Position numbers and translations under genes: made by a program
The notes under the pieces: model-generated
The model's input: only the letters and a program-made list of their open reading frames with translations
Told to the model about the DNA's origin: nothing
Database searches by the model: none
Shown: positions 29,112 to 54,615 of the stretch, piece after piece
Layout: each line of letters opens with the position of its first letter
How positions within the stretch are numbered: the stretch's first letter is position 1
Assembly (NCBI GenBank): GCA_026129095.1
Contig: JAHCIT010000006.1
Location: forward strand, 64,235-128,234
DNA length: 64,000 nucleotides
DNA from: Deltaproteobacteria bacterium
GTDB lineage: Bacteria; JAGRBM01; JAHCIT01
Direction of reading: 5' to 3'

Positions 29112-29139
29112 TTGACTCTTCCGTACCCATGCATATACT
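29112..29139 (+). promoter_or_regulatory. Sigma70-like promoter of the Type I RM operon (TTGACT-16-TATACT)
   Basis: It sits in an AT-rich 90-bp intergenic stretch at 29040-29130, with -35 at 29112-29117 and -10 at 29134-29139. Confidence 0.4.
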
Positions 29140-29191
29140 TGTGGCTATGGAAGCGTCACAACCCACCCATTTTCACCTCCAAAAAACGGCT

Positions 29192-29803
29192 AAAATGGCC
29201 GTTTGGCGGTCTTTGGGCGAGGTTGCCGAGATCATCGCCGGTCACCCGCTCTACCGGTTCGAGGGCGACACAGGACCTGCGATCCCGATTATCAATATCC
29301 GCGACCTGGAACACGCCGCCGATCTGACTCACTTCCTGGAAACGGCCGCCATCTCCGATCCGGCCAGATTCGGGCGTGCCCGGATTCTTCCCGACGATGT
29401 GATTGTGACGGCGAGAGGGACGCAGCTCCGGTCGGTTCTGGCCCCGGCCCGCTGGCAGGGCGCGGTCGCCTCATCGAACCTCATGCTCATCCGGCCGAAG
29501 CCGGAGATACTACTCCCGGAACTGCTGTCGGTATTTCTCCAGTCGCCCGCCGGGGTGAAAGCGTTCGAGCAGCGCCGGACCGGCACTCAGTTACTCAAGC
29601 TCACCCTTCGGGATCTGGCCGAAATCGAAGTGCCGGTGCCGCCGCTTTCCGAACAGCGCCAGCTCGCGGACCTGCTCCGCTCTGCCCAGGACTATTACGT
29701 CAACGCCCGCTACGCCGCCGAGATGCGTCTGATGGCGGCGCGCCAGATCGTGTCGGAACGGATTCTGCCCCCGCGCAAGCCCGCCACTGGAGACCCTGAA
29801 TGA
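29192..29803 (+). CDS. hsdS: Half-size Type I restriction-modification specificity subunit (single target-recognition domain HsdS); the ORF is listed from 29129 but the start at 29192 (MAVWRSLGEV) is likely
   Basis: The C-terminal conserved region VPVPPLSEQRQLADLL parallels the LPPLPEQKRIA and LPIPPIDEQRQI motifs of the full HsdS downstream. The stop overlaps the hsdM start. Confidence 0.6.
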   Translation, partial: KMAVWRSLGEVAEIIAGHPLYRFEGDTGPAIPIINIRDLEHAADLTHFLETAAISDPARFGRARILPDDVIVTARGTQLRSVLAPARWQGAVASSNLMLIRPKPEILLPELLSVFLQSPAGVKAFEQRRTGTQLLKLTLRDLAEIEVPVPPLSEQRQLADLLRSAQDYYVNARYAAEMRLMAARQIVSERILPPRKPATGDPE

Positions 29804-31302
29804 AAACCACCAGCACCAGCCAGCTCTTCGGCCACATCTGGAAAGCCGCCGACATCTTGCGCGGCTCCATCGACTCGTCCGACTACAAGGGGTTCATCTT
29901 CGCGATGATGTTCCTCAAGCGCGCCAACGACGTGTTCGAGGAAGAGGCCGAGAAAATTTTGAAGGAAACCGGCGACCGCAAGCTCGCCTACGAAGACGAG
30001 GACGAGCACCCGATCTTCGTGCCCAAGCGTGCGCGGTGGGAGGAACTCCGCAAGAAATCCACCCAGCTGGGCGACACCCTCAACAAGGCTTGCGAAGCGC
30101 TGGAACACTCCAATTCGACGCTTGAAGGCGTCCTTGCCGGCATCGACTTCAACGACGAGCACCGGCTGGGCGACGCCAAGCAGCGCGACATGCTGCTGGC
30201 GAAACTGATCCTTCATTTCTCGGAGATCAGCCTGCGGAACGCCGATCTGCCGGAGCCCGACGCGCTCGGCCGGGTCTATGAATACCTGATCGAGAAGTTC
30301 GCCGACGACGCCGGCAAGAAGGGCGGCGAGTTCTACACCCCGCGCGGCGTCGTCCAGCTTCTGGCGGAACTGCTCGAACCGAAAGAAGGGATGCGGATCT
30401 GCGACCCCACCTGCGGATCGGGCGGCATGCTGATCGAATGCGCGCACAAGATCGAGAATGACGGCGGCAACCCGCGCAACCTCTCCCTGTTCGGGCAGGA
30501 GAAGAACCTGGGCACCTGGGCCATCGCCAAGATGAACCTGCTCCTTCACGGGCTGCCGGACGCGCAGGTCGCCAAGGGGGACACGATCCGCGATCCCAAG
30601 TTCCTGGAAAAGGGCGAACTGATGCTGTTCGACCGGGTGATTGCCAATCCGCCGTTCAGCCTGGACGAATGGGGCCGCGATGCGGCCGAGGCCGACCGGT
30701 TCGGGCGCTTCAGGTTCGGCGTTCCGCCCGCCAGCAAGGGCGACCTAGCGTTCCTCCAGCACATGGTTGCGACGCTCAATGCCAAGGGCATGCTCGGCGT
30801 CGTCATGCCGCACGGCGTGCTGTTCCGGGGCGGTGCCGAAGGGAAGATCCGCGAAGGTCTCCTGAAGGAAGACCTGTTCGAGGCGGTGATCGGCCTGCCG
30901 GTGAACCTGTTCTACGGAACCGGGATTCCGGCGGCGATCCTGGTGCTGCGCCGGTCCGGAGCGAAACCGCCCGCCCGGCGCGGCAAGGTGCTGTTTATCA
31001 ACGCACCGGACGGATTCGAGAGCGCCCCGAACCAGAACAAGCTCCGGCCGCAGGATATCGAGCGGATCGCCAGGGCGTTCAAGGCCTTCAGGGACGAGGA
31101 GAACTTCGCCCGCGTCGTGCCGCTGAAAGAGATCGAGGACAACGGCTTCAACCTGAACATCTCCCGCTACGTGGAGATGGGCGGTGAAGATGCGATCCCC
31201 GACGTCCGCGAGGCGCTGAAAGCGCTCCGCGTCGCGGAAGCAAAGCGCGATGAGGCCGAGAAGCGCATGAACAGGATGCTCAGGGAACTCGGGTTCGAGT
31301 GA
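29800..31302 (+). CDS. hsdM: Type I restriction-modification N6-adenine DNA methyltransferase subunit
   Basis: The N-terminus SQLFGHIWKAADILRGSIDSSDYKGFIFAMMFLKR, the FYTPR motif, the SAM motif DPTCGSGGML and the NPPF motif (IANPPFS) are all present. Confidence 0.9.
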   Translation: MKTTSTSQLFGHIWKAADILRGSIDSSDYKGFIFAMMFLKRANDVFEEEAEKILKETGDRKLAYEDEDEHPIFVPKRARWEELRKKSTQLGDTLNKACEALEHSNSTLEGVLAGIDFNDEHRLGDAKQRDMLLAKLILHFSEISLRNADLPEPDALGRVYEYLIEKFADDAGKKGGEFYTPRGVVQLLAELLEPKEGMRICDPTCGSGGMLIECAHKIENDGGNPRNLSLFGQEKNLGTWAIAKMNLLLHGLPDAQVAKGDTIRDPKFLEKGELMLFDRVIANPPFSLDEWGRDAAEADRFGRFRFGVPPASKGDLAFLQHMVATLNAKGMLGVVMPHGVLFRGGAEGKIREGLLKEDLFEAVIGLPVNLFYGTGIPAAILVLRRSGAKPPARRGKVLFINAPDGFESAPNQNKLRPQDIERIARAFKAFRDEENFARVVPLKEIEDNGFNLNISRYVEMGGEDAIPDVREALKALRVAEAKRDEAEKRMNRMLRELGFE

Positions 31303-31853
31303 GCAGGGAGATGCAGGAATTCGCCATGTCGCGGCTTTGGGACCAACCGGGAGTGCCCCACAGGGGATGGAGGTGTATCGATGTCGTCGATAACCGGCCG
31401 GGTGACGTTGAGCCGGGCGAGGATGTCACCGAGGGCTATCCCACCTGCGAGATGTGCGGCCAGGAGCGGATACGGTTCGTGCATCTGATGGAGCATCCCG
31501 ATTTCCCGCAGCAACTGGACGTCGGCTGTGTCTGTGCGGAAAAGATGGAGGGCGACTACACCGGCCCGCGCCGGCGTGAGGCGACGCTCAAGAGCAAGGC
31601 CGCCCGCCGCGACAAATGGCTCACCCGGCGGTGGAACGAATCGGCGAAAGGGAACCCCTTCCTTCGCATTGAGGGCTTTGTCCTGACCGTATTCCGGGAT
31701 TCCCGCCGTCCCGGGCACTGGAAATGCAGCATTAAGGAACCCGGTGCCGAAGACCCGATCTTCGGCACCCAGTCCCATCCGTCCGAGGACGCCGCCAAGC
31801 TCGCCCTGTTCGAAAAGTTCTGGCACCTCCGGCAAAAAGGGACCGTCCAGTGA
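31299..31853 (+). CDS. Hypothetical Cys-rich (putative zinc-ribbon) protein embedded between hsdM and hsdS
   Basis: The 184-aa protein has the cysteine pattern WRCIDVV...YPTCEMCG...VGCVCAE. Its start and stop overlap the neighbouring genes by 4 nt each. Confidence 0.5.
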   Translation: MSREMQEFAMSRLWDQPGVPHRGWRCIDVVDNRPGDVEPGEDVTEGYPTCEMCGQERIRFVHLMEHPDFPQQLDVGCVCAEKMEGDYTGPRRREATLKSKAARRDKWLTRRWNESAKGNPFLRIEGFVLTVFRDSRRPGHWKCSIKEPGAEDPIFGTQSHPSEDAAKLALFEKFWHLRQKGTVQ

Positions 31854-33094
31854 CCAAGCCCCTTCCCAAAGGCTGGCGCCGCGTGCGGCTGGGCGAGTTT
31901 CTATCGCCGAGCAAGCTGCGCTTCGTTGTGCGCGACGACGTTACGTACACTCAAGTGACCGTAAGGATTCGCCATAAAGGCATCGTGGCAAGAGGTTACG
32001 AACAAGGTTCAAACATCAAGACGAAAAACCAGAATCAAATCAAAGCAGGGCAGTTTCTTATATCCAAGATCGACGCGCGTAACGGGGCCTGTGGTATTGT
32101 CCCACCAGAGCTTGATGATGCAGTAACGACTCACGACTTTCTTGCGTACGACGTCAATCCTGAAATTGTCGATCCGGGATTTTGGGACATCTATTCGTCG
32201 CTACCTTCGTTTGTCGAACTCTGTGCTTTGGCGAGTGAAGGGACAACGAATCGCGTTCGCCTGCGCCCCGATGAATTCCTGGACATGGAGATAGTGCTCC
32301 CTCCTCTCCCCGAGCAAAAACGGATCGCCGCCACCCTCCAGTCCGTCGACGCCGCCATCCGGGCCAACGAAGAGGTCATCGAAAAGACCCGCGACCTGAA
32401 AAAATCGCTCGCCAACGAGCTGCTGACCCGCGGTATCCCCGGCCGGCATAAGCGGTTCAAGGATTCCCCCATCGGCAAGATACCGGTGGACTGGGAGGTG
32501 AAGCGGCTGGGGGGCCTTCTTCTCCGGATCGAAGCAGGCAAAAGCCCCAAGTGTGAAGACCGTCCCGCCTCTCCAGAGGAATGGGGCGTGCTGAAAGTGA
32601 GCGCGGTAAGCTGGGGCACTTTTCATGCCCATGAGAATAAAGCGTTACTACCGTCGACATTGCCGTTCCCAGATTCTGAAGTTCAGGAGGGCGATCTTCT
32701 TCTTAGCAGAGCGAACACGCCGGATCTCGTTGGCCGTTGCGTAATCGTCGGGAAGGTGCGTCGACGCCTCCTGCTGTCTGACAAGACCCTTCGTCTTGTT
32801 CCCAATGATCGCCTCACCAGTAAACAGTTTCTAAATATCGCGTTGAATTCTCCCGATGCCAGAATACAGATTTCGTTAAATGCCACAGGCTCGTCACGCT
32901 CCATGAAGAATATTTCCCAAGAGACGCTACGGGATGTCGTCCTCCCTATACCGCCCATTGACGAACAGCGCCAGATCACTGAAGCGCTCGACACTACCGA
33001 TCCGCGAGATATCGAAGCGAAAACTGCCGTCCAGGAATATCGGAAAGTCGGTGCTTTACTACGGAGTTCTCTATTAGCGGGGATAAGTGTATGA
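31850..33094 (+). CDS. hsdS: Type I restriction-modification specificity subunit (two TRDs)
   Basis: The central and C-terminal conserved repeats are LPPLPEQKRIAATLQSVDAAI and LPIPPIDEQRQITEALDT. TRD1 (~31930-32300) is markedly AT-richer than the rest of the gene. Confidence 0.85.
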   Translation: MTKPLPKGWRRVRLGEFLSPSKLRFVVRDDVTYTQVTVRIRHKGIVARGYEQGSNIKTKNQNQIKAGQFLISKIDARNGACGIVPPELDDAVTTHDFLAYDVNPEIVDPGFWDIYSSLPSFVELCALASEGTTNRVRLRPDEFLDMEIVLPPLPEQKRIAATLQSVDAAIRANEEVIEKTRDLKKSLANELLTRGIPGRHKRFKDSPIGKIPVDWEVKRLGGLLLRIEAGKSPKCEDRPASPEEWGVLKVSAVSWGTFHAHENKALLPSTLPFPDSEVQEGDLLLSRANTPDLVGRCVIVGKVRRRLLLSDKTLRLVPNDRLTSKQFLNIALNSPDARIQISLNATGSSRSMKNISQETLRDVVLPIPPIDEQRQITEALDTTDPRDIEAKTAVQEYRKVGALLRSSLLAGISV

Positions 33095-33384
33095 ACTCAC
33101 TCATTACAGACGCCGTCCGCGAGCGCCGCGTCCTGACCTTCACCTATGATGGTTTTGAACGGCAGGTCGAGCCCTATACCTATGGAAAGCTGACGACCGG
33201 ATATGAAGGGTTGCGGGCGTTCCAGACCGGCGGCGGTTCGCGCTCCGGCAACCAGCCCATGTGGCGGCTGTTCCACGTCAACAGGATTCGCGGCCTCGCC
33301 CTGACCGAGGACCGGTTCACCAACCCAAGACCCGACTACAACCCCCAGGATTCCGACTTCCGGACCATCTGGGCGGGGGTGTGA
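33091..33384 (+). CDS. Small WYL-domain protein
   Basis: RVLTFTYDGFERQVEPYTYGKL...MWRLFHVNRIRGLALTEDRF matches the WYL-domain pattern (...Y....R.veP......WYL.a.....RtFRldRI). The ORF is 97 aa. Confidence 0.6.
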   Translation: MNSLITDAVRERRVLTFTYDGFERQVEPYTYGKLTTGYEGLRAFQTGGGSRSGNQPMWRLFHVNRIRGLALTEDRFTNPRPDYNPQDSDFRTIWAGV

Positions 33385-33387
33385 GCG

Positions 33388-34446
33388 ATGGCCAAGGGAA
33401 TAAATACTACGGGTGTACGGCTCCTTGATTACAAGGAAGTCCTGTCGTCACTCCCTGAAAAGAAGAAGCGCCACCTTCTCCTTGGGAACGGCTTCAGCCG
33501 CGCACTGCGCAACGACATTTTCTCTTACGATGCGTTGTTTGACCAGGCGGATTTCACGTCAATTGATCCCAGAATCAAGGATCTCTTCGGATCCCTTGGC
33601 ACCACCGATTTTGAAACTGTTATGCGCGTGCTTAGAGATGCATCGAACCTGATCAACGTATACTTGCCCAAAGATAAGTTGCTTGCGAATACCCTCATCG
33701 AACATTCCAATGCCTTAAAAGGCCTCTTGGCCAAAACTATTTCCGACAACCACCCCGCTCATCCAAACGAAATCAAGGAAGAGCAGTATCAGCATTGCCG
33801 CATTTTTCTGAATTCGTTCAAAGATGTTTATACGCTGAACTATGACCTTCTGCTTTATTGGACCCTCATGCACGAAGAGCTGGGAGATTCGCTTTCCAAT
33901 GATGACGGCTTCCGTACGCCAGATTCAGGTGAGCAGGAGTATGTCACCTGGGAAGTCGAGAATTCTAACAAGCAGACGGTTTTCTATCTCCATGGCGCGC
34001 TCCACTTGTTTGATGCTGGCGCTGAGCTCCAGAAATACACTTGGAAGAACACGCAGGTACGATTGATCAAGCAGATTCAAAACGCCCTCGAAGAAGACCG
34101 CTATCCACTAATCGTTGCTGAAGGAACCGCCGATGGAAAACGACGCCAGATCAAGCATAGCGGCTATTTAACGAGGGGTTTCCGCAGTCTTTCCAATATT
34201 GGCGAGACCATGATTATGTTTGGTGTTTCGTGTTCCAAACAGGATGAGCACATCCTCAAAGCGATAGAAAAGGGAAGTGGCAATGGCATCACCGATATAT
34301 ACGTAAGCATTTTCGGCGATCCCGATAGTGACGCCAATAAACGCATTATCCGCCGCGCCAAACAGATGGGAATCGCTCGGCCCAAATACCGAAAAGCATT
34401 GACCGTCTCCTTCTTTGACGCGTCAACCGCAAAGGTCTGGGGCTAA
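33388..34446 (+). CDS. SIR2-like (SIR2_2/DUF4917-type) protein
   Basis: LLLGNGFS, YTLNYDLLLYW and FYLHGALH correspond to the GAGxS, TTNYD and HLHG signatures of the SIR2-like family. The protein is 352 aa and the gene is noticeably lower in GC than its neighbours. Confidence 0.6.
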   Translation: MAKGINTTGVRLLDYKEVLSSLPEKKKRHLLLGNGFSRALRNDIFSYDALFDQADFTSIDPRIKDLFGSLGTTDFETVMRVLRDASNLINVYLPKDKLLANTLIEHSNALKGLLAKTISDNHPAHPNEIKEEQYQHCRIFLNSFKDVYTLNYDLLLYWTLMHEELGDSLSNDDGFRTPDSGEQEYVTWEVENSNKQTVFYLHGALHLFDAGAELQKYTWKNTQVRLIKQIQNALEEDRYPLIVAEGTADGKRRQIKHSGYLTRGFRSLSNIGETMIMFGVSCSKQDEHILKAIEKGSGNGITDIYVSIFGDPDSDANKRIIRRAKQMGIARPKYRKALTVSFFDASTAKVWG

Positions 34447-34448
34447 TC

Positions 34449-37400
34449 GTGAGCGATACTCTTTCTCGTCTAGACCAGCTTCGGGCCACCTGGCAGGCCC
34501 GGTTGCCGCTGTCGTCCGACGATCTCAGGCGGCTGCGCGAGCACTGGGAAATCGTTCACACCTACAACTCGAACGCGATCGAAGGGAATACGCTTACCCT
34601 CGGCGAGACCAAGGCGATCCTGATCGACGGGATCACCATCAGCGGCAAGCCGCTTCGGGAAATCCTCGAAGCCACCAATCACAAGTCGGCGATGGGGCTT
34701 CTCTACCGGCTGGCCGAGTCAAAGACGCCGCTGACGGAACCGGAAATCCTGGACCTTCACCGGCTGATCCTGAACGCGATCCGGCCCGACGACGCCGGGC
34801 GCTACCGCACAGATACGGTTCGGGTCGGTGGTTCCCGTCATGTATTTCCGAACCCGGCCAAGGTCCCGGACCTGATGGCGGAGTTTGTTGCCGGGATTGC
34901 GAAGGAAACTGGCCATCCGGTGAAAATCGCCGCCCGCGCCCACTTCCGGTTTGTCGCCATTCACCCGTTCGCCGACGGCAACGGACGTACAGCCCGTCTG
35001 CTGATGAACCTGCTGCTCATGAGGTCGGGCTATCCGCCTGCGTTCCTGCCGGTCGAACGGCGGGGCGAGTATTACGACCTGCTCGAAGAGTCTCATACAA
35101 AGGGGACGGGCCGCTTCGAATCATTCATCGCCGAATGCGTGGCGGAGTCTCTTGAAGATACGCTTGAGGGGTTGGGCGGAGTGGATGCGGCTCCGGCGGC
35201 TCCTGCCGCCGCTCCGGCAACAAAGACCAGACCGGCGGGCACGGCCGGGCGCTCGTCCCGGTGGAACGAGGAAGACCTCTCGGAGGGACCGGCCGTGGCC
35301 TTGCTGGAAAAGCTGGGCTGGACATTCATCGAGAGCGAACGCCTGAATTCCGACCGGGATACGAACCGGGACGCGATTCTGGCCAGACGGCTGGAGAAGG
35401 CGCTCCGGAGGCTGAACCCGTGGCTGTCGGACGACAATCTCCACCGGGCCGTCCGCTCGGTCACGCATATCCCCGCCACGGGCCTGATCGAGGCGAACGA
35501 GCGGGTTCACCGGACCCTCGTGCATACGCTGTCGCTGGAACAGGACCTGAACGACGGACGCGGGAAGATCGGCCGCGACGTCCATTTCATCGACTTCGCC
35601 AATTCGCGGAATAACGAGTTCGTCGTCACCCGGCAGTTCGATGTCCAGGGGGCCAATCAGCGGCGGATCTTCGATGCCGTCTGCTTCGTGAACGGTCTCC
35701 CGCTGGCGATCATCGAGTGCAAGTCGCCCACGCTCGGCGAAAAGTGGTTCGAGGAGGCGATGAAATCCCTGAACCTCTATCAGGAGGCGAAGGACGAATA
35801 CGCCGGTCAGGGCGTCCCGAAGGCGTTCGAAGCGACACAGGTGGTCGCCGCGCTTGCGGGCTCGTCCGGGGCAAAACTCGCCACCGTGCTGACTCCGGAC
35901 CGGCATTATGCCGAGTGGCGGGAGCCGTTCCCACTATCGCGGGAGGCCGTCGCTGGTCTCGTCGGCCGCGAGGTGACGCCACAGGATCTTCTGATCGCGA
36001 GCGCCCTTTCGCCGGAAAGCCTGCTCGACCTCGTTTCGAACTTCGTCGTTTTTGAACCCGAAGGGGCGAGGCGCGTCAAGAAACTCGCCAAGTACCAGCA
36101 GTTCATCGCCGTGAACCGGGCGCTAGACCGCATCAGAACCGCTCCTGACCCGGCGGCCCGTGGCGGCATAGTCTGGCACACCCAGGGCTCGGGCAAATCG
36201 CTCACGATGCTCTGGCTGGCGGTGAAACTGCGCCGGCTGGCGGCTCTGGAGAACCCGTCCATTGTGATCGTCACGGACCGTACGGATCTCGACACCCAGA
36301 TCAGCGAGACCTTTGAGCGGTGCGGCTTCCCGAATCCCCAGCAGGCGAAAAGCGTCCGGCATCTGGCCGAACTACTCGGGGCCGGATCGGGCCTCACGAT
36401 CACGACAACGATCCAGAAGTTTCAGGGCGTGTCCGGCGGCAAGCAGACGGCCCTGAACGAGGCGTCGAACCTGTTTGTCCTTGTCGATGAGGCGCACCGG
36501 ACCCAGTACAAATCGCTCGCGGCCCGCATGCGTCAGGCCCTTCCGAATGCCTGCTTCCTGGGTTTTACCGGAACGCCGATCGACAAGAACGACCGTTCCA
36601 CCCCGAAGGTTTTCGGCCCCTACATCCATACCTATCCGATCCAGCAGGCGGTGGAAGACGGCGCGACGGTTCCCATTTATTACGAAGGCCGTCTGACCGA
36701 GCTTCACGTCGAAGGCTCGTCGCTCGATGCGGTATTTGGCCGGGTGTTCGCGGACAAGTCGGATGATGAAAAGGCGGCCATCCGCAAGAAGTTCGTCACC
36801 TACGAGGCGGTCGCCGGGGCTCCGAGCCGGATCACGCGAATCTGCACGGACCTCGTCGACCATTTCGAGAAGTTCATCCGGCCGAACGGATTCAAGGCGC
36901 AGGTTGTCGCCTGCACGCGGGACGCCGCCGTCACCTACCTTGAAACGCTGGAACGGCTGGGAGCACCCGAGTGCGCGCTCATCATGTCCGGCACCCATAC
37001 GGATGAGGACCGGCTCGCACGGCATCACAAGTCCAGGGAACAGCAGAAGGAGCTGATCGCCCGGTTTATCAACAAGGACGATCCGCTTTCAATTTTAGTC
37101 GTCTGCGACATGCTGCTGACCGGCTTCGATGCGCCGGTCGAACAGGTGATGTATCTGGACAGCCCCCTCAAAGAGCACAATCTTCTCCAGGCAATCGCCC
37201 GCGTGAACCGCACGGCCGAAGGCAAGACTTACGGTCTTGTGGTGGACTACTGGGGCATCTCCGATGAACTCCAGGACGCGCTGGCCGTTTTCGATCCCAA
37301 AGACATTCAGGGCGCGCTGGTGGAGATTTCCAGCGAGCTGCCGAGGCTGGAGAACCGGCACCGGCAGGTCATGGACCTGTTCAGGAAGGTGGACCGCAAA

Positions 37401-38258
37401 GACCCGGAAGCCTGTCTCCGGATTCTGGAGCCTGAAGACCGGCGGGCCGAGTTCGAAGCGAAGTTCCGCAAGTTCGCCCAGAGCATGGACATGGTTCTGC
37501 CCGATCCCGCCGCCCTGAAGTTCCAGAAAGACCTGACCTGGCTTGGCAAACTCCGCGTCATGGCCCGTGCGCGGTTCCGCGATGATAGCCTCGATCTCTC
37601 CGGCTGCGGCGCAAAGGTCAAAAAACTCATTGAGGAATACGTACGAGCTGACGAGGTTGTCCAACTCACGGAGCCGGTTTCGATCTTCTCGAAGCGGTTC
37701 GATGAAGAAGTGGACAAGCTCAAGTCTCCGGAGGCGAAAGCCAGCGAGATGGAACACGCCGTCAAGCACGAGATCAGTGTCAAGATCTCCGAAGACCCCG
37801 TGTTCTACCAGAAACTCTCGGAACGTCTGGAGGAGATTATCCGTGACCGCAGGGAGCATCGTATCCAGGCGGCAGAGGCGATCAAGCGGCTGCAACTGGT
37901 CCTCGACGAACTCCGTGGCCGTCATCAGCAAGCGAACTCTTTGGGCCTAAGTGATGAGGAACTAGCGTTTTTCAACGCGATCCAGGCGCCGGGGAGTTCC
38001 AATACGCTCAAGGAGGAACCCGCTCCATATGGGAATGCTCACTCTCCCCAAGAGCAGGAACGGGCGAAACTCGCCGCGGAAGTTTTCGCCATGCTTAAAG
38101 AACTCGCCGTCATTGACTGGGTCCGCAAAGAGGATGTCCAGAGGGAAATGCGCCGTCAGGTCAAGCGGCGACTCCGCTTCGCTGGGTTCGGCGATGATGA
38201 GACAGAAAAACTGACCACCTCGCTGATGGATCTCGCCAGAGCACGGCTCGCGAAGTGA
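34449..38258 (+). CDS. hsdR: Type I restriction enzyme R subunit (HsdR) with an N-terminal Fic (AMPylase-type) domain fusion
   Basis: The HsdR part has the Walker A motif HTQGSGKS, the DEAH box LVDEAHR, an HsdR N-terminal region (ALLEKLGWTFIE) and a C-terminal helicase domain. The first ~230 aa contain the Fic motif HPFADGNGRTARLLMNLLL, joined by an Ala/Pro-rich linker. The total is 1269 aa with a GTG start. Confidence 0.85.
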   Translation: MSDTLSRLDQLRATWQARLPLSSDDLRRLREHWEIVHTYNSNAIEGNTLTLGETKAILIDGITISGKPLREILEATNHKSAMGLLYRLAESKTPLTEPEILDLHRLILNAIRPDDAGRYRTDTVRVGGSRHVFPNPAKVPDLMAEFVAGIAKETGHPVKIAARAHFRFVAIHPFADGNGRTARLLMNLLLMRSGYPPAFLPVERRGEYYDLLEESHTKGTGRFESFIAECVAESLEDTLEGLGGVDAAPAAPAAAPATKTRPAGTAGRSSRWNEEDLSEGPAVALLEKLGWTFIESERLNSDRDTNRDAILARRLEKALRRLNPWLSDDNLHRAVRSVTHIPATGLIEANERVHRTLVHTLSLEQDLNDGRGKIGRDVHFIDFANSRNNEFVVTRQFDVQGANQRRIFDAVCFVNGLPLAIIECKSPTLGEKWFEEAMKSLNLYQEAKDEYAGQGVPKAFEATQVVAALAGSSGAKLATVLTPDRHYAEWREPFPLSREAVAGLVGREVTPQDLLIASALSPESLLDLVSNFVVFEPEGARRVKKLAKYQQFIAVNRALDRIRTAPDPAARGGIVWHTQGSGKSLTMLWLAVKLRRLAALENPSIVIVTDRTDLDTQISETFERCGFPNPQQAKSVRHLAELLGAGSGLTITTTIQKFQGVSGGKQTALNEASNLFVLVDEAHRTQYKSLAARMRQALPNACFLGFTGTPIDKNDRSTPKVFGPYIHTYPIQQAVEDGATVPIYYEGRLTELHVEGSSLDAVFGRVFADKSDDEKAAIRKKFVTYEAVAGAPSRITRICTDLVDHFEKFIRPNGFKAQVVACTRDAAVTYLETLERLGAPECALIMSGTHTDEDRLARHHKSREQQKELIARFINKDDPLSILVVCDMLLTGFDAPVEQVMYLDSPLKEHNLLQAIARVNRTAEGKTYGLVVDYWGISDELQDALAVFDPKDIQGALVEISSELPRLENRHRQVMDLFRKVDRKDPEACLRILEPEDRRAEFEAKFRKFAQSMDMVLPDPAALKFQKDLTWLGKLRVMARARFRDDSLDLSGCGAKVKKLIEEYVRADEVVQLTEPVSIFSKRFDEEVDKLKSPEAKASEMEHAVKHEISVKISEDPVFYQKLSERLEEIIRDRREHRIQAAEAIKRLQLVLDELRGRHQQANSLGLSDEELAFFNAIQAPGSSNTLKEEPAPYGNAHSPQEQERAKLAAEVFAMLKELAVIDWVRKEDVQREMRRQVKRRLRFAGFGDDETEKLTTSLMDLARARLAK

Positions 38259-38261
38259 TCC

Positions 38262-38990
38262 ATGGTACTTCGTTCCTTCCAGTTCGGTAACACCCGAATC
38301 AGCTACCGGACGATCCGCTCCAGCCGGCGGACCACAATAGGCATTGCTGTAAAACCAGACGGGAAAGTTGTGGCTTCGGTGCCACAGGGCATAACGGTTT
38401 CCAAAGTGGACCGGGCCATTCGGTCCAAAGCCCGTTGGATCTACCAGAAGCAGCTTGAGGCGCGGGAGTTACAGTCCCAGCAGCCTTCCGGCAGGGAATT
38501 CGTTGACGGCGAGACGTTCAAATATCTGGGCCGGGGGTACCGGTTGCGGATTTCAGTGGGTCACCAGTCCGAGGTTCGTCTGATGAATGGCCGCTTAAGA
38601 GTCATCGTGGCAAACAAGCCCGCGAGTGGGCGCAAGCCTGAGCTGGTCCGTTCCGCCCTGATAGAATGGTATCGACAGCATGCGATCCAGCGTCTCGCCG
38701 AACGAATGGATTACTGGTCCAGAAGGATGGGGATATCACGTCCCAGAATGTTGCTGGGAGACCAGAATCGCCGCTGGGGGAGTTGTAGCGCGAAAGGCGA
38801 AGTCCGGATCAACTGGCGGATTATTCAGGCCCCCATGAGGATCGTAGACTATGTGATTGTCCACGAACTGGTCCATCTGATCCATCCGGATCACTCAAGG
38901 GCATACTGGAAAGCGCTTCATCGTGTCTTGCCGGATGCGCCTCAACGAAAATCCCGCCTGTATCTCATCGGCCCCGAGCTGATGTGGTGA
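38262..38990 (+). CDS. YgjP-like (DUF45/WLM-type) zinc metallopeptidase associated with Type I RM
   Basis: The HEXXH motif is in IVHELVHLIHPDHS, and RWGSCSAKGEVRINWRI is typical of DUF45. The gene starts 4 nt after the hsdR stop. Confidence 0.75.
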   Translation: MVLRSFQFGNTRISYRTIRSSRRTTIGIAVKPDGKVVASVPQGITVSKVDRAIRSKARWIYQKQLEARELQSQQPSGREFVDGETFKYLGRGYRLRISVGHQSEVRLMNGRLRVIVANKPASGRKPELVRSALIEWYRQHAIQRLAERMDYWSRRMGISRPRMLLGDQNRRWGSCSAKGEVRINWRIIQAPMRIVDYVIVHELVHLIHPDHSRAYWKALHRVLPDAPQRKSRLYLIGPELMW

Positions 38991-41659: not shown

Positions 41660-44617
41660 TCAGTCGATGCCGTAATATGCGAGCGTGAAAAGGCCCAACT
41701 GGTTCTTTCGCTTTTGGTTCTCAGTTAAATTATCGTCATCTTTCACGGTTCGAAGTGCCGTAATCGCAGCCTGTTGAAAAACACTGCTTGGTAAAAATGC
41801 GCCTGATGAGACTGACTGTTCCATAAATATCTGGACAAACGTACGAATCAGGTTTGTCTGTAGCGGTGCGAGACCGGCAATAACACCTCTGGCTCCCTGG
41901 GCCAGGAATGCATCGGCCACAGTCTCCTTGTGCAGATGGTCGGTTTGCCGGCGGTAGGCAGCTGAACATGCGAACAAGGCCACGGTAGTACCGTTAAAGG
42001 AGATGCCTGATGATTCGATATCCGTGCGACGAAGGCGTAATCCGCCCGGCAATGCGAGGCTGGAACGGGCCGGATCCGCTTCATCGAAACCGTGAGTAAT
42101 AATCGTGGCCAACTGGCTTCTGGAGATTGCCTGCAATACGTCTTGAACGGAGGAGATGTCCCAAGAATTACCTGGTGGTGAAGAGTATACCATTATCGCA
42201 CGATACAGCTCTGGCTCAAAAAGATTATAATTCCCGGATTTCGCGCTTAAGGTCGTTCTGTTGGTATCAGTAGCGAAGAACGGAGAGACCATGGCAGGGG
42301 TGATTACAGAAGACTGGAAGTTTTTGATGAAAGGTTCATTCTTCGATCCACAAGGAAGCCACTGTATGGGTAAATCCATCAGCTCGGCATCCACACTAAG
42401 GTATATATGCTTGGGTTTATGCTGATTTAGACAGGAGAGTAAACTGTTAGGGAAAAGCTTCTGTCCGATGATCAGCAATTTCCTATATAGCAAGTCCACT
42501 ATTTTTTCATTGGGTTGTTCATCCTTGGTACAAAGATGAATGAGATTTGGCAACGCCTGATCGGGATGGACAAGCTGTCTAAGAAAATCCCTTACAATAT
42601 TGTCCTTTTGAATACATTCTCGGATTTTGGCGAAATCAGATTTTCTCGCGTTATCTAGTTTTATGATATCTGTTTTACAGTTATCGTTTCCATTGTTTCT
42701 GGTTAACAAACAGAATGAAGTATTGTTTTCATTGATAAAGTAATGAACGGCAATGGATCCAGGATTTTTATTTACAAGATCGTATATCCTTTGACCGCCC
42801 CAAAGCTTGAAATATAATTCCGAAAGCTGATCACCTGCGGAGACGGTCGAAGCTCCATTTAAAACAGACTCTACATAGCCAGCAAATACCGGTTTTTCAT
42901 TCAACGATATATTGAGTAATCTTGTCCTCTTATTGGGTATCCACTGCATCTGCTTCTGAACAAGACCCGTATACAGCTTGCACAAGCCAGATGGAGTACC
43001 TCTTCCAGACTTTTTAATCAGCATACGGGTCACTTTCAAAATCTCACTCGAATGAAACAAACTATTACTGTCGGAAATTTTCTGCATTTTCGTGACTAAA
43101 TCATTGATCGCGTCCGTCTTGATGGACCGGACACTCTTTAGCTTTAATTTGATAGCCTGTAAATGCGAATTGTATAGTTGAAATGTTTTTGAAGGATTGT
43201 CATCCGATGGAATATATAATAGATTTTCCCAATTATGTCTTTTTAGTTCCTTTACTTCAGTATGGTTATTGTTTTGATCAAGGATCCCAAAGTTTGCGCT
43301 CTCACCGAGGCCATGCCATGTCGTTCGGTCGCCGTACACATGTTTCAAATAGGCAATAAAGTAATTCGCCCGTTGTCGTGTCTGCCCATCGTTAATCCAG
43401 TTCGACAGCATGAACTGGTAATGAAGCAGTTCAACGAGTGCATTGACATCAAGATTCCTGGACACCAGTTCGAGCTGCCGGTCGATAACTTCAGATGCAA
43501 GGCTGAATTTCATGGAGTGAAGCAGACGTGTCAATACGTAGCGTACATTTTTTGCTGAGAAAGGTTCGCTTGAGTTTTGGGCGGTAGCTTTAGCGGTTGA
43601 TGGGTCAGTGCATGACAATATCGAATTAATATCCGAGGACACTTGACATTCCAGAGGTGCTGCTTGATGCGACAAAAGAATGGGTGAAGGATTCGCCAGT
43701 TGGGTATCGATCTGATCAGCTTCAGCGGATAAGACCTGCTTTTGAGGCTGATCGAGGCTTGCGCGGTTACTTGCTAATTTGAGAATGGAGGCGCGATTAT
43801 TCCAGTCTCCATACAAGTAATATTCCCCAACCTTAAGATATTCCATAGTATTATTCGCAAATGGCGGATGTTTTCCTGCACTGATAACAGGATTCAGACT
43901 GGACCATAGCGATTGGATCGCAGTATCCATGTGACTGAGTTTAAGAACAGATATGATTAAAACCGGATATTCTTCTTTTAATATGATAAGTTTGGAATGG
44001 ATTCCTGATGGAGTGGTATTTGCGGGACCGGACAATGCGCAGTGGAGTAACTCTTTTAGTCCGTCATCGTCAATTATCATCTCAGTGTCTGTACGAAGGT
44101 GGAGAACTTGGTGGGTCAGCCAGTATGAATAATGGCGCACACTCCGCTGGGAAGAAATTGTGCCTGGAAACTGAATGCTACCGAGAATCTTTTTCACCGT
44201 GTTCGCGATGCCTTTGACCTTGGCAATCGTGTTTTCATGTTGCTCTGGCTGAACCTCCAGTACGGAAGAGGCGAGAAACATGATCGCCATTCCCAGCCCG
44301 GCGCGGTCGAGTGCATTGAGATGGGAAAATCTGTGAAATCCGGCGACTAAATCGCCAAATGCATTTACCTTTTCAACGTCGGTGTAATCTTCGATTGAGT
44401 TTAAAGAATCTGATAGCGGATCTGGGCTGGTGTTATTATTAACTATGTGGTCGACGATCGTCATTGTTTGTAGACCAGGAGTAACTAAATTCAGGTGGCG
44501 ATTGTTATCAGGCCCCGTTGGTGTCTTCTGCTTTTTGAAGACGGAACAGCCATTTAATATTCCGACGCATTTTAGAAGTTGGTTTGTCTTGAAAAATAAC
44601 TGAAGTCGTGGACTCAT
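41660..44617 (-). CDS. Large protein with C-terminal CHAT (caspase-like) protease domain; the true start may be the internal Met near 44466 to avoid overlap with the upstream gene
   Basis: The C-terminus has ATIITHGFDEA (His motif), TTVALFACSAAYR (catalytic Cys motif) and VADAFLAQGARGVIAGLAPL, which match the CHAT-domain signatures. The ~700-aa N-terminal region is unassigned. GC content is about 45%. Confidence 0.65.
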   Translation of the reverse strand: MSPRLQLFFKTNQLLKCVGILNGCSVFKKQKTPTGPDNNRHLNLVTPGLQTMTIVDHIVNNNTSPDPLSDSLNSIEDYTDVEKVNAFGDLVAGFHRFSHLNALDRAGLGMAIMFLASSVLEVQPEQHENTIAKVKGIANTVKKILGSIQFPGTISSQRSVRHYSYWLTHQVLHLRTDTEMIIDDDGLKELLHCALSGPANTTPSGIHSKLIILKEEYPVLIISVLKLSHMDTAIQSLWSSLNPVISAGKHPPFANNTMEYLKVGEYYLYGDWNNRASILKLASNRASLDQPQKQVLSAEADQIDTQLANPSPILLSHQAAPLECQVSSDINSILSCTDPSTAKATAQNSSEPFSAKNVRYVLTRLLHSMKFSLASEVIDRQLELVSRNLDVNALVELLHYQFMLSNWINDGQTRQRANYFIAYLKHVYGDRTTWHGLGESANFGILDQNNNHTEVKELKRHNWENLLYIPSDDNPSKTFQLYNSHLQAIKLKLKSVRSIKTDAINDLVTKMQKISDSNSLFHSSEILKVTRMLIKKSGRGTPSGLCKLYTGLVQKQMQWIPNKRTRLLNISLNEKPVFAGYVESVLNGASTVSAGDQLSELYFKLWGGQRIYDLVNKNPGSIAVHYFINENNTSFCLLTRNNGNDNCKTDIIKLDNARKSDFAKIRECIQKDNIVRDFLRQLVHPDQALPNLIHLCTKDEQPNEKIVDLLYRKLLIIGQKLFPNSLLSCLNQHKPKHIYLSVDAELMDLPIQWLPCGSKNEPFIKNFQSSVITPAMVSPFFATDTNRTTLSAKSGNYNLFEPELYRAIMVYSSPPGNSWDISSVQDVLQAISRSQLATIITHGFDEADPARSSLALPGGLRLRRTDIESSGISFNGTTVALFACSAAYRRQTDHLHKETVADAFLAQGARGVIAGLAPLQTNLIRTFVQIFMEQSVSSGAFLPSSVFQQAAITALRTVKDDDNLTENQKRKNQLGLFTLAYYGID

Positions 44618-54243: not shown

Positions 54244-54615
54244 ATGAATCCGGGCACACTGACGCTGGCCGATCTCCTGCAATCCCCGGAACGGATTGCG
54301 GACCTGCCGGTTGAATCGGTGCCGTCCTTTCTGGCTCAGCTGACCACGCTGCAATCCGGTCTGTATGCGAGGCTGCTGCTGCACCCGGCAAGACCACCGG
54401 TAGAGGCCGAGACGAATGAAGACGACCGGTGGCTGACTGCCGAAGAGGCGGCTCCGCTCCTCGGCGTGACGCCCCGGTGGCTCTATACTCGCTGGAGGCA
54501 GCTCCCGTTTTCCAGAAAGCTTTCCCACAAGGTGCTGCGCTTTTCGGAGAAGGGCATTCGCCGGTATCTGGCGGGAAAGGCCGGGAGACCGGTCGCTGTT
54601 GAGGTGAACCGGTGA
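54244..54615 (+). CDS. xis: Excisionase/AlpA-like HTH DNA-binding protein
   Basis: EEAAPLLGVTPRWLYTRWRQLPFSRKL...VLRFSEKGIRRYL is a helix-turn-helix of the excisionase type. It sits immediately upstream of, and overlaps, the integrase. Confidence 0.55.
   Translation: MNPGTLTLADLLQSPERIADLPVESVPSFLAQLTTLQSGLYARLLLHPARPPVEAETNEDDRWLTAEEAAPLLGVTPRWLYTRWRQLPFSRKLSHKVLRFSEKGIRRYLAGKAGRPVAVEVNR

Follow-up and report, generated by a model that had tools for sequence, protein, structure and literature searches.

Why does the restriction subunit of a type I restriction-modification (R-M) system begin with a Fic domain, and is such a gene genuine? The question is raised by a 1269-residue reading frame in the window, the 64,000-nucleotide stretch of deltaproteobacterial DNA analyzed here. 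The evidence points to a real end-to-end fusion, a conclusion that is close to certain at the least: a FICD-like class II Fic AMPylase, predicted to be catalytically intact and autoinhibited, is joined by a flexible linker to an apparently active HsdR. What the arrangement does is a more tentative matter, and several readings are weighed below.

Architecture and Integrity of the Fusion Gene

MCW5829638.1, a protein from a deltaproteobacterial metagenome-assembled genome (MAG), has exactly the encoded sequence and is annotated only as "HsdR family", a name that hides the extra Fic domain. A complete Fic domain (residues 1-242) is followed by a linker of about 30 residues and a complete HsdR (Table 1). 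Pfam placed Fic (PF02661) at residues 94-190 (E = 1.9e-25; 90 bits, cut-off 24), HSDR_N at 273-472, SWI2_SNF2 at 550-775, a T1R_D3-like domain at 862-934, and T1RH-like_C at 991-1262. The original prediction of a Fic motif at the N-terminus of this HsdR frame is borne out by a canonical catalytic motif, by the Pfam and FICD matches, and by the predicted fold. Its Fic part, given as about 230 residues over 34,449-35,250, took in the whole domain and most of the linker, although the full domain is somewhat longer, at about 242 residues. The Ala/Pro-rich linker and typical HsdR said to follow were found as well, with domains from HSDR_N to T1RH-like_C and with nuclease, Walker A, and DEAH motifs intact. 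An overlapping 246-residue reading frame (34,415-35,155, in another frame) was treated as spurious.

Table 1. Features of the restriction cassette and its fusion gene, in window coordinates.
Feature	Position	Strand	Details and basis
Half-size HsdS-like gene	29129..29803	+	224 aa; heads cassette; conserved in L003, L004, L010, L011
hsdM	29800..31302	+	500 aa; Pfam
184-aa ORF	31299..31853	+	First cargo slot, between hsdM and hsdS; no family
hsdS	31850..33094	+	414 aa; Pfam
97-aa gene	33091..33384	+	Weak WYL similarity; after hsdS also in L013 (87%) and L012 (43%)
DUF4917/SIR2-like cargo gene	33388..34446	+	PADLOC PDC-S21; ends 2 nt ahead of Fic-hsdR start
Fic-HsdR fusion gene	34449..38258	+	1269 aa; GTG start; lone terminal stop
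FICD-like, predicted class II Fic domain, complete	34449..35174	+	aa 1-242; Pfam, FICD match, AF2 model, dN/dS 0.09
Inhibitory-helix motif S41-N-A-I-E45-G-N47	34569..34589	+	E45 aligns with FICD E234
Fic catalytic motif HPFADGNGRTAR	34962..34997	+	aa 172-183; H172 is the catalytic His; sequence
Ala/Pro/Gly-rich linker GVDAAPAAPAAAPATKTRPAGTAGRSSRW	35175..35264	+	aa 243-272; variable sequence
HSDR_N nuclease domain	35265..35864	+	PD-(D/E)xK residues D409/E423/K425 (nt 35670-35723); Pfam
SF2 translocase motor, SWI2_SNF2/ResIII and T1R_D3-like	36096..37250	+	Pfam
Walker A GSGKS	36186-36200	+	aa 580-584; motor motif
DEAH	36486-36497	+	aa 680-683; motor motif
T1RH-like C-terminal domain of HsdR	37419..38234	+	Pfam
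YgjP-like (M48/SprT-like) metallopeptidase	38262..38990	+	3' of hsdR; Pfam

A hidden stop codon or frameshift, named at the outset as what could undo the prediction, was not found between the two parts; the frame runs through intact in independent assemblies that are 95, 68, and 66% identical, with the Fic part under purifying selection. The window does derive from a MAG, and unfused Fic and hsdR neighbors only a few nucleotides apart do exist, but the chance that an indel error in that MAG merged two separate genes is negligible, given that two Logan assemblies from different runs show the same 1269-residue frame, that relatives at 66-68% identity are also fused, all in frame and with differing linker lengths, and that the linker, although under relaxed selection, still evolves in a coding-like manner.

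A FICD-Like Fic Domain

The catalytic motif fits the Fic/Fido pattern HxFx(D/E)GNGRxxR and is invariant across all fusions. Human FICD was matched by phmmer over 220 residues (E = 2e-45, 38% identity), the match starting beyond its TPR region, and an AF2 model of the Fic part (pLDDT 96) superimposes on FICD (6i7g) with a TM score of 0.90 and an rmsd of 1.9 Å; a chance match to the motif is thereby dismissed. In a gap-free alignment E45, K67, L69, and H172 correspond to FICD E234, K256, L258, and H363. The inhibitory helix (S/T)xxxE(G/N), proposed as something to look for upstream of the Fic core, is present as SNAIEGN at residues 41-47 and is invariant in seven fusions and 75 homologues. In the scheme of Engel and colleagues from 2012, class II Fic proteins reportedly carry an intramolecular N-terminal inhibitory helix, and the occurrence of this motif in the same chain as the Fic core places the domain, as far as its sequence goes, in that class.

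The best matches in sequence and fold are human FICD/HYPE and Caenorhabditis elegans FIC-1 (6i7g, 4u04, 5jj6), together with Bacteroides BT_2513 (3cuc). FICD is a bifunctional AMPylase/deAMPylase in which Glu234 is required for AMP removal, and its substrate is brought to the Fic core by a separate TPR domain. The window domain keeps the inhibitory Glu, the catalytic His, and the dimer-relay Lys and Leu of FICD. Unlike FICD, it is bacterial and cytoplasmic, has neither TPR nor membrane anchor, and is partnered with a restriction motor rather than BiP. It does not qualify as a FICD/HYPE orthologue, as Fic begins at residue 1 and Pfam gives no TPR or other N-terminal match.

The Fic module also matches two PADLOC defense profiles, PDC-S04 (4e-36) and SoFic (3e-32, covering profile positions 63-270 of 361). 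PDC-S04 is a candidate defense gene for which one test in a native host found no defense activity (10.1101/2024.12.20.629700). SoFic was shown experimentally to be a single-gene anti-phage Fic (Millman et al., 2022; 10.1101/2022.05.11.491447; PMC12249575). Like the window domain, for which AMPylation is predicted, SoFic is an AMPylase of the Fic family whose inhibitory Glu is N-terminal. In contrast to the window domain, which is fused to HsdR, SoFic has a C-terminal domain needed for toxicity; this domain is absent from the window protein, where the linker already begins at residue 243. SoFic structures match the domain weakly (sequence E about 2e-6, TM about 0.72), and the NCBIfam equivalog NF046030 scored 34.7 bits, far short of its cut-off of 550. 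By these comparisons the window domain is no orthologue of SoFic.

HsdR, Linker and Surrounding Cassette

The HsdR part scored 513.9 bits against TIGR00348 (type I HsdR; curated cut-off 284.55) over residues 285-953, and the nuclease residues D409, E423, and K425 are invariant in the aligned fusions. Among the fusions, dN/dS is 0.09-0.11 for Fic, 0.075-0.083 for HsdR, and 0.42-0.52 for the linker. Since the value for Fic, about 0.09, is like that of HsdR, the Fic domain is under purifying selection. Of the 30 residues in the window linker, 10 are Ala, 4 Pro, and 4 Gly; across the fusions the linker spans 25 to 45 residues, and each fusion lineage has its own linker length and sequence. A comparison with 138 unfused HsdRs revealed no HsdR residue that is present in all fusions and rare in the unfused proteins. 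With an unconstrained linker and no such residue, nothing points to an evolved Fic-HsdR interface. An AF2 model of Fic, linker, and HSDR_N, built with seven sequences (mean pLDDT 48.5), was too poor to inform on inter-domain docking.

Unfused HsdR relatives start 6-10 residues ahead of a post-linker WNEE..SE motif, in keeping with a complete HsdR behind the linker. The window has in-frame TTG (residue 242) and GTG (residue 245) codons with a purine-rich stretch upstream. A conserved internal start giving unfused HsdR is nonetheless unlikely, because the GTG codon (V245) is replaced by Pro in the nearest fused relative, P0121, though such a start may operate in this strain alone.

Cognate hsdM and hsdS genes share an operon with Fic-hsdR, and the cassette is otherwise ordinary: half-hsdS, hsdM, hsdS, hsdR, and ygjP. 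The 184-residue ORF had no family match in Pfam, PADLOC, or NCBIfam. The slot upstream of (Fic-)hsdR holds a different gene in each relative, and the DUF4917/SIR2-like gene is swapped for another even in the 95%-identical relative (L013). The YgjP-like gene follows hsdR in every relative examined, fused or unfused.

Distribution of the Fusion

The same architecture was found in P0121 (95% identity; Logan samples SRR23375770 and SRR30765738), P0122 (68%), and P0123 (66%, from a Chrysiogenetes MAG), whose Fic parts are 73-93% identical to that of the window. Further fusions (group B: P0232, P0250, and P0229-31) have an HsdR only about 30% identical and a Fic domain from another subclade, and three of them encode two tandem Fic domains, Fic-Fic-HsdR. 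Group B is a second, independent fusion lineage.

An exhaustive profile search served as the census instead of a word-index search, which, given the Fic part alone, returned only stand-alone Fic proteins, missed P0121-P0123, and was unusable for counting. Both halves were matched by only two of 1.84 billion cluster representatives (1.84e9); from rank 3 onward all matches were single-domain, at 392 bits or less. The architecture had been called unusual, and the census agrees. A genome-collection scan found no fusion, although the same scan also missed the source genome. No description of a Fic-HsdR fusion was found in the literature, where "HsdR" matches were strain genotypes.

Unfused Counterparts and Origin

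Loci in which Fic and hsdR are separate have the same order as the window: half-hsdS, hsdM, cargo, hsdS, Fic, hsdR, and ygjP/SprT. They were found on a plasmid of Methylobacter sp. YRD-M1 (NZ_CP091425.1; halfS-hsdM-x-hsdS-Fic-hsdR, then SprT/YgjP), on a plasmid of Azotobacter salinestris (NZ_CP045301.1), and on the metagenome contigs L029 and L039, the last also with a separate Fic gene upstream of hsdR. As in the window, unfused Fic-hsdR loci carry a Fic of the FICD-like subfamily (HPFVDGNGRTSR), translationally coupled to hsdR; the difference is that they make two polypeptides rather than one. In Methylobacter the two genes overlap by 4 nt (ATGA), and on L029 only 5 nt separate the Fic stop from the hsdR ATG. 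Departures from the window include the Methylobacter Fic, in which Val replaces the inhibitory Glu (SNAIVGN) and which is nonetheless maintained, and the Azotobacter plasmid, which carries two Fic genes of other subfamilies.

The idea that Fic genes are normally separate genes in hsd loci therefore holds in part: separate copies directly upstream of hsdR exist, but most members of the subfamily lie outside hsd loci. None of 34 long metagenome loci and none of 75 long viral loci with the subfamily was an hsd locus. Altogether, Fic adjoins hsdR in at least five unrelated lineages, while Fic relatives elsewhere are almost never near hsd genes. One stand-alone Fic, P0003, shares 85% identity with the Fic of P0122, and its neighbors include no R-M genes. 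Since near-identical modules stand alone in this way, the Fic enzyme does not need HsdR. Viral contigs often carry stand-alone relatives, and one stand-alone relative adjoins a TIR gene.

No stand-alone Fic was found upstream of the nearest unfused HsdRs (64-69% identity), which means that the fusion clade acquired Fic and the others did not lose it. It is well supported that a Fic gene entered the variable cargo slot before hsdR, became translationally coupled to it, and then lost its stop codon; the coupled state that would precede fusion persists on the Methylobacter plasmid and contig L029, which supports this origin. That fusion occurred at least twice independently is equally well supported.

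Possible Roles of the Fusion

The repeated origin of so rare a fusion suggests joint action of restriction and protein AMPylation, and a functional coupling of the two is inferred here. A defense role is favored by the PDC-S04 and SoFic HMM matches, the relatives on viral contigs, and the TIR neighbor. The reading preferred here, a real possibility that falls short of being probable, is that the fusion is the covalent form of a recurring Fic-HsdR partnership, in which an autoinhibited AMPylase rides on the restriction motor as a second-line effector. The Fic domain would be tethered 1:1 to the motor and kept silent by two means, E45 and its attachment to the R-M complex. Once restriction becomes engaged, stalls, or meets a block such as a phage anti-restriction protein, the domain would AMPylate a cellular or phage protein and arrest the infected cell.

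This model borrows from PrrC in the EcoprrI type IC locus, a latent effector triggered by phage inhibition of restriction (PMC12707154). Like the window Fic, PrrC is encoded in the slot before hsdR in its type I locus. PrrC is, however, a separate ABC-ATPase/HEPN RNase, whereas the window effector would be a Fic AMPylase covalently joined to HsdR; ABC-ATPase and HEPN anticodon nuclease domains are absent from the window protein, in which Pfam shows only Fic and HsdR domains. The likeness is one of functional analogy only. Accessory domains on type I R subunits have precedent in DUF4145-HsdR, and a general hypothesis couples effectors to restriction (Makarova et al., 2012; PMC3506569). In DUF4145-HsdR, too, a domain that may be a toxin or an effector is attached to the type I restriction subunit, but domain family and chemistry are different. 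Counting against the preferred reading are the Fic modules that stand alone outside hsd loci, the negative native-host test of PDC-S04, the lack of SoFic orthology, and the absence of any sign of an evolved Fic-HsdR interface. In addition, a lethal toxin gated only by the inhibitory Glu is hard to reconcile with the maintenance of the Methylobacter Fic.

That maintenance fits a non-lethal, local substrate, since a Fic without the inhibitory Glu is tolerated beside hsdR. It has been considered, as an unlikely but appreciable alternative, that Fic AMPylates or de-AMPylates HsdR, HsdM, or HsdS and so switches nuclease, translocase, or assembly. Such switching might, for example, alleviate restriction when DNA has been damaged or when the system establishes itself in a new host. 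The 1:1 tether and translational coupling favor a substrate inside the complex, and the domain resembles the bifunctional FICD, the counterpart of whose Glu234 is invariant among fusions and homologues. Against this stand the lack of any fusion-specific HsdR residue, the closest unfused HsdRs, which do without Fic, and the 85%-identical stand-alone relatives in loci without R-M genes, which argue for a substrate other than HsdR.

It is rather improbable that the tether neither helps nor harms, with Fic an independent cargo whose stop codon was removed by a small indel. Spacings of 4-5 nt or overlaps in unfused loci would make accidental joining easy, the linker evolves without constraint and varies from lineage to lineage, HsdR has no adaptation, many unrelated genes occupy the hsdS-hsdR slot, and the architecture is very rare. 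However, the fused frame has been kept down to 66% protein identity with dS above 1, there were at least two origins, one lineage gained a second in-frame Fic, and Fic recurs beside hsdR in at least five unrelated lineages when it is otherwise almost never near hsd genes.

A more specific version of the preferred second-line effector is speculative. Activity may be switched by pairing of the Fic domains on the two HsdR copies in R2M2S1, which could operate because the FICD dimer-relay residues are conserved (K67 and L69). In the resulting scheme, a hard-wired guard that is improbable as a whole, the two Fic domains would pair through a FICD-type interface and be inactive or de-AMPylating; with HsdR displaced, stalled, or blocked they would become monomeric AMPylases and shut the cell down. 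In Fic-Fic-HsdR the partner would be present in cis.

Less probable still, HsdR might carry Fic to incoming DNA or the methyltransferase core, so that phage or plasmid proteins would be AMPylated there, with DNA-mimic anti-restriction proteins and DNA-bound proteins as candidate targets. HsdR is the sole other module here, the substrate-bringing TPR of FICD being absent, and the tether would bring the active site to the spot that anti-restriction proteins occupy; the stand-alone relatives, many on viral contigs, have no such delivery module.

Implications

To our knowledge, a target or trigger has been established for few of the Fic proteins widespread in bacteria, and SoFic is among those lacking one. 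A conserved and repeatedly arisen fusion acts as a "Rosetta stone", from which an hsdR-adjacent Fic is predicted to act with or on the type I complex. Protein AMPylation, as predicted here, would bring a new chemistry to the few effectors that are physically linked to R-M enzymes. The four components HsdM, HsdS, Fic-HsdR, and YgjP provide a system for studying the connection between AMPylation and DNA-based immunity. If the hard-wired guard were true, it would be the first oligomer-switched AMPylase that reads the state of a restriction motor, and it would assign a function to the Fic genes embedded in hsd loci.

A FICD-Like Fic Domain Joined to HsdR

The predicted protein is 100% identical to MCW5829638.1, encoded on a 259,610-bp contig in a MAG that carries the label Deltaproteobacteria bacterium, where it is named only "HsdR family type I site-specific deoxyribonuclease". 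The original prediction of a Fic domain joined to the N-terminus of HsdR through an Ala/Pro-rich linker was confirmed as an observation and supported in its interpretation as a whole: the single frame, Pfam domains and motifs all agree, as does the linker (aa 243–272), which contains 10 Ala, 4 Pro, and 4 Gly in 30 residues. The protein scores 513.9 bits against TIGR00348 (hsdR, NCBIfam; cut-off 284.55). HsdR nuclease residues D409, E423, and K425 are retained, along with the Walker A (GSGKS, aa 580–584) and DEAH box (aa 680–683) motor motifs.

The Fic motif belongs to a true Fic domain rather than being a chance match. When all PDB sequences were searched with phmmer, human FICD, a Fic AMPylase, was the best match (E 2e-45, residues 18–237), followed by C. 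elegans FIC-1 and Bacteroides BT_2513, and the match to SoFic, a single-gene anti-phage Fic system, was confined to the surroundings of the core motif (E 2e-6). An AlphaFold model of aa 1–250, with 75 homologues as input, had a mean pLDDT of 96 and superimposed on FICD (6i7g) with a TM-score of 0.90 (rmsd 1.9 Å, 38% identity). In an ungapped alignment E45, K67, L69, and H172 correspond to FICD E234, K256, L258, and H363, of which E234 is the inhibitory and deAMPylating glutamate and H363 the catalytic histidine. K256 and L258 belong to the dimer relay; the titles of PDB entries 6i7h, 6i7i, and 6i7j record mutations at these positions. An inhibitory motif, left open by the original prediction, was found to be present, and the domain belongs to class II, the autoinhibited type. 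Because it lacks the TPR domain and membrane anchor of FICD, it resembles FICD without being an orthologue of it.

Features of the Fic-hsdR gene and its surroundings (window positions; aa, residues of the fusion protein)
Feature	Position	Strand	Details
Half-size HsdS-like gene	29129–29803	+	224 aa, one target-recognition domain; directly upstream of hsdM; weak MADS5 match
ORF between hsdM and hsdS	31299–31853	+	184 aa; no family match in Pfam, PADLOC, NCBIfam
97-aa gene	33091–33384	+	After hsdS; weak WYL similarity
DUF4917/SIR2-like gene (PDC-S21)	33388–34446	+	PADLOC E 7e-121; ends 2 nt before Fic-hsdR start
Fic-hsdR fusion ORF	34449–38258	+	1269 codons, single frame, one terminal stop
Class II inhibitory motif	34569–34589	+	S41-NAI-E45-G-N
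Fic catalytic motif	34962–34997 (aa 172–183)	+	HPFADGNGRTAR
Fic core	aa 94–190	+	Pfam, E 1.9e-25
HSDR_N	aa 273–472	+	Pfam
SWI2_SNF2/ResIII	aa 550–775	+	Pfam
T1R_D3-like	aa 862–934	+	Pfam
T1RH-like_C	aa 991–1262	+	Pfam
YgjP-like metallopeptidase	38262–38990	+	Directly after hsdR
CHAT-domain protein	41660–44617		985 aa; in lowest-G+C segment
HTH_17 excisionase-like gene	54244–54615		End of low-G+C stretch
Tyrosine integrase	ORF from 54612		End of low-G+C stretch
tRNA-Leu(CAA)	55826–55912		End of low-G+C stretch

Conservation, Rarity, and Origins of the Fusion

The same architecture, with catalytic and inhibitory motifs kept, was found in P0121 (95% identity, 1269 aa; Logan contigs from runs SRR23375770 and SRR30765738), P0122 (68%, 1296 aa), and P0123 (66%, 1288 aa; Chrysiogenetes MAG). 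Conservation at these identities shows that there is no frameshift or missed stop at the junction, a concern raised originally, and an assembly or sequencing artefact is effectively excluded. The HsdR half is complete, as aligned unfused relatives begin 6–10 residues ahead of the post-linker WNEE..SE.PA motif, and the Fic half extends to the usual C-terminal helix. Nei–Gojobori dN/dS values for two pairs (window against L013, the locus of the 95%-identical fusion, and L003 against L004) were 0.088 and 0.108 for the Fic part, 0.075–0.083 for the HsdR parts, and 0.42–0.52 for the linker. Purifying selection is as strong on the Fic part as on HsdR; the linker serves as a spacer.

A profile of Fic, linker, and HSDR_N, built from seven fusions, was compared by HMMER with 1.84 billion cluster representatives. 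Among the matches listed, which reach down to 248 bits and could miss fusions with much more distant halves, only P0123 (810 bits) and P0250 (650 bits, 1398 aa; Fic and HsdR confirmed by Pfam) cover both halves, bearing out the claim of an unusual architecture. From rank 3 on (at most 392 bits) each listed match covers the Fic half or the HsdR half alone; the only other long HsdR-type protein listed, P0352 (1287 aa), carries no Fic but an insertion within the motor domain. A further fusion of this Fic subfamily with a DNA-processing enzyme is P0263 (1084 aa), where the same Fic type follows a MobA/VirD2 relaxase and TraI middle domain at the C-terminus; it matches the Fic half only. A word-index homologue search with a 271-aa Fic query did not return P0121–P0123 despite Fic parts 73–93% identical, and it seems to sample long proteins with several domains too sparsely. 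The architecture is very rare and masked by generic HsdR annotation. No description of it was found in the literature searched; its components are already known, as is the general idea of coupling effectors to restriction-modification (R-M) enzymes.

The fusions fall into two lineages. Group A (the window protein, P0121, P0242, P0122, and P0123) forms a single clade in a neighbor-joining tree of the HsdR part (bootstrap 52), with unfused HsdRs of 64–69% identity as its sister group. The HsdRs of group B (P0232, P0250, and P0229–P0231) are only ~30% identical to these; their nearest unfused relative is P0251 (50–56%), and their Fic domains form a different subclade whose nearest stand-alone Fic is 54% identical. 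Three group B proteins of 1663–1706 aa (P0229, P0230, and P0231, the last at L005 10001–14992) carry tandem Fic domains with motifs intact in each. The second domain, ~30% identical to the first, retains HPFDDGNGRVVR and an SxxxEGN motif and may be a built-in Fic partner. The most economical reading is at least two independent fusions and one in-frame domain addition.

The hsd Cassette and Its Cargo Slot

Fused and unfused relatives share a skeleton of half-size hsdS, hsdM, hsdS, hsdR, and a YgjP-like metallopeptidase gene, with variable genes inserted between hsdM, hsdS, and hsdR. The gene directly upstream of (Fic-)hsdR changes in every relative examined: DUF6119 in L004, an SMC/AAA_21 ATPase in L005, and AF_1680 in L012. 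This position is a fast-turnover cargo slot, and turnover is very fast since the DUF4917 gene is swapped for an unrelated 232-aa gene in L013. In EcoprrI, prrC occupies the same slot.

The half-size HsdS-like gene is extra to the full hsdS and is kept in L003, L004, L010, and L011 (34–46% identity), with a weaker counterpart on the Methylobacter plasmid (L096; 26% to L011). The 97-aa gene is kept in L013 (87%) and L012 (43%). The YgjP-like gene follows hsdR in all fused and unfused relatives (window, L003–L006, L010–L015, and L096), often overlapping the hsdR stop. Its product has weak WLM/SprT-like similarity to DNA–protein crosslink proteases, bears a SprT-family annotation in Methylobacter, and may deal with stalled HsdR. 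The cassette lies in a lower-G+C stretch (~26000–56400; 0.42–0.60 against ~0.63 in the flanks), probably an integrated island.

Unfused Fic Genes and Apparent Mobility of the Module

Separate Fic genes in hsd loci, the arrangement originally regarded as normal, do exist, and the slot before hsdR holds them in several cases. The Methylobacter sp. YRD-M1 plasmid has the arrangement halfS-hsdM-PDDEXK-hsdS-Fic(253 aa)-hsdR-SprT/YgjP, with an ATGA overlap of Fic and hsdR. This stand-alone Fic (L096 8884–9645, NZ_CP091425.1) reads SNAIVGN, not SNAIEGN, a natural variant without the inhibitory glutamate; in other Fic proteins, loss of this residue leads to constitutive AMPylation. In L029, 5 nt separate the Fic stop from the hsdR ATG, in L039 a RhuM-like gene intervenes, and an Azotobacter salinestris plasmid has the order hsdM-Fic-hsdS-Fic-hsdR. 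A small indel is enough to turn an adjacent pair into a fusion.

Most members of this Fic subfamily lie away from R-M genes: HsdR or HsdM was found near stand-alone relatives in 0 of 34 metagenome loci and 0 of 75 viral-contig loci (each at least 6 kb), while positive controls worked. Stand-alone FICD-like members (40–47% identity) occur frequently on contigs from viruses or prophages (L098–L177, IMG/VR), and none of the 143 relatives confirmed in one IMG/VR scan adjoins hsd genes. The P0122 Fic is 85% identical to P0003, a stand-alone Fic in a non-R-M context (L001 5498–6238), and only 77% to the window Fic. Moreover, synonymous divergence of Fic and HsdR parts is 0.56 against 0.20–0.34 in one close pair (window 34449–35174 and L013) and 0.60 against 0.88–0.98 in the other (L003 and L004). 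This closeness and mismatch suggest that the module is mobile and exchanged by recombination.

Possible Roles of the Fused Fic Domain

Adjacency, coupling, or fusion of Fic and hsdR genes recurs, from which we infer that their products act together. Tentatively, and at somewhat less than an even chance, we favor a Fic domain that would serve as a second-line effector tethered to HsdR. The module is similar to Fic proteins linked with defence (PADLOC PDC-S04, E 4e-36; SoFic HMM, E 3e-32), and SoFic is an anti-phage AMPylase by experiment (10.1101/2022.05.11.491447; PMC12249575). It also occupies the slot of PrrC, the textbook example of an effector kept latent by a type I enzyme and freed when phage inhibits restriction (PMC12707154). 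It is an established idea that immunity is coupled to dormancy or suicide, with domains attached to type I R subunits among the examples (PMC3506569), and the strictly conserved inhibitory glutamate implies that a trigger would be needed. Against this, PDC-S04 is a candidate family only and showed no defence in one test in a native host (10.1101/2024.12.20.629700), Fic modules that are nearly identical work without HsdR, no fusion-specific residues were found in HsdR, and the Methylobacter Fic lacks the inhibitory glutamate. Rival readings are that Fic regulates the restriction enzyme itself, that it targets phage proteins brought close by HsdR, or that the fusion is neutral.

The protein is a Rosetta-stone link that predicts physical cooperation of Fic proteins with type I restriction motors. 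As a compact system, the cassette might yield the trigger and substrate of a bacterial FICD-like AMPylase.
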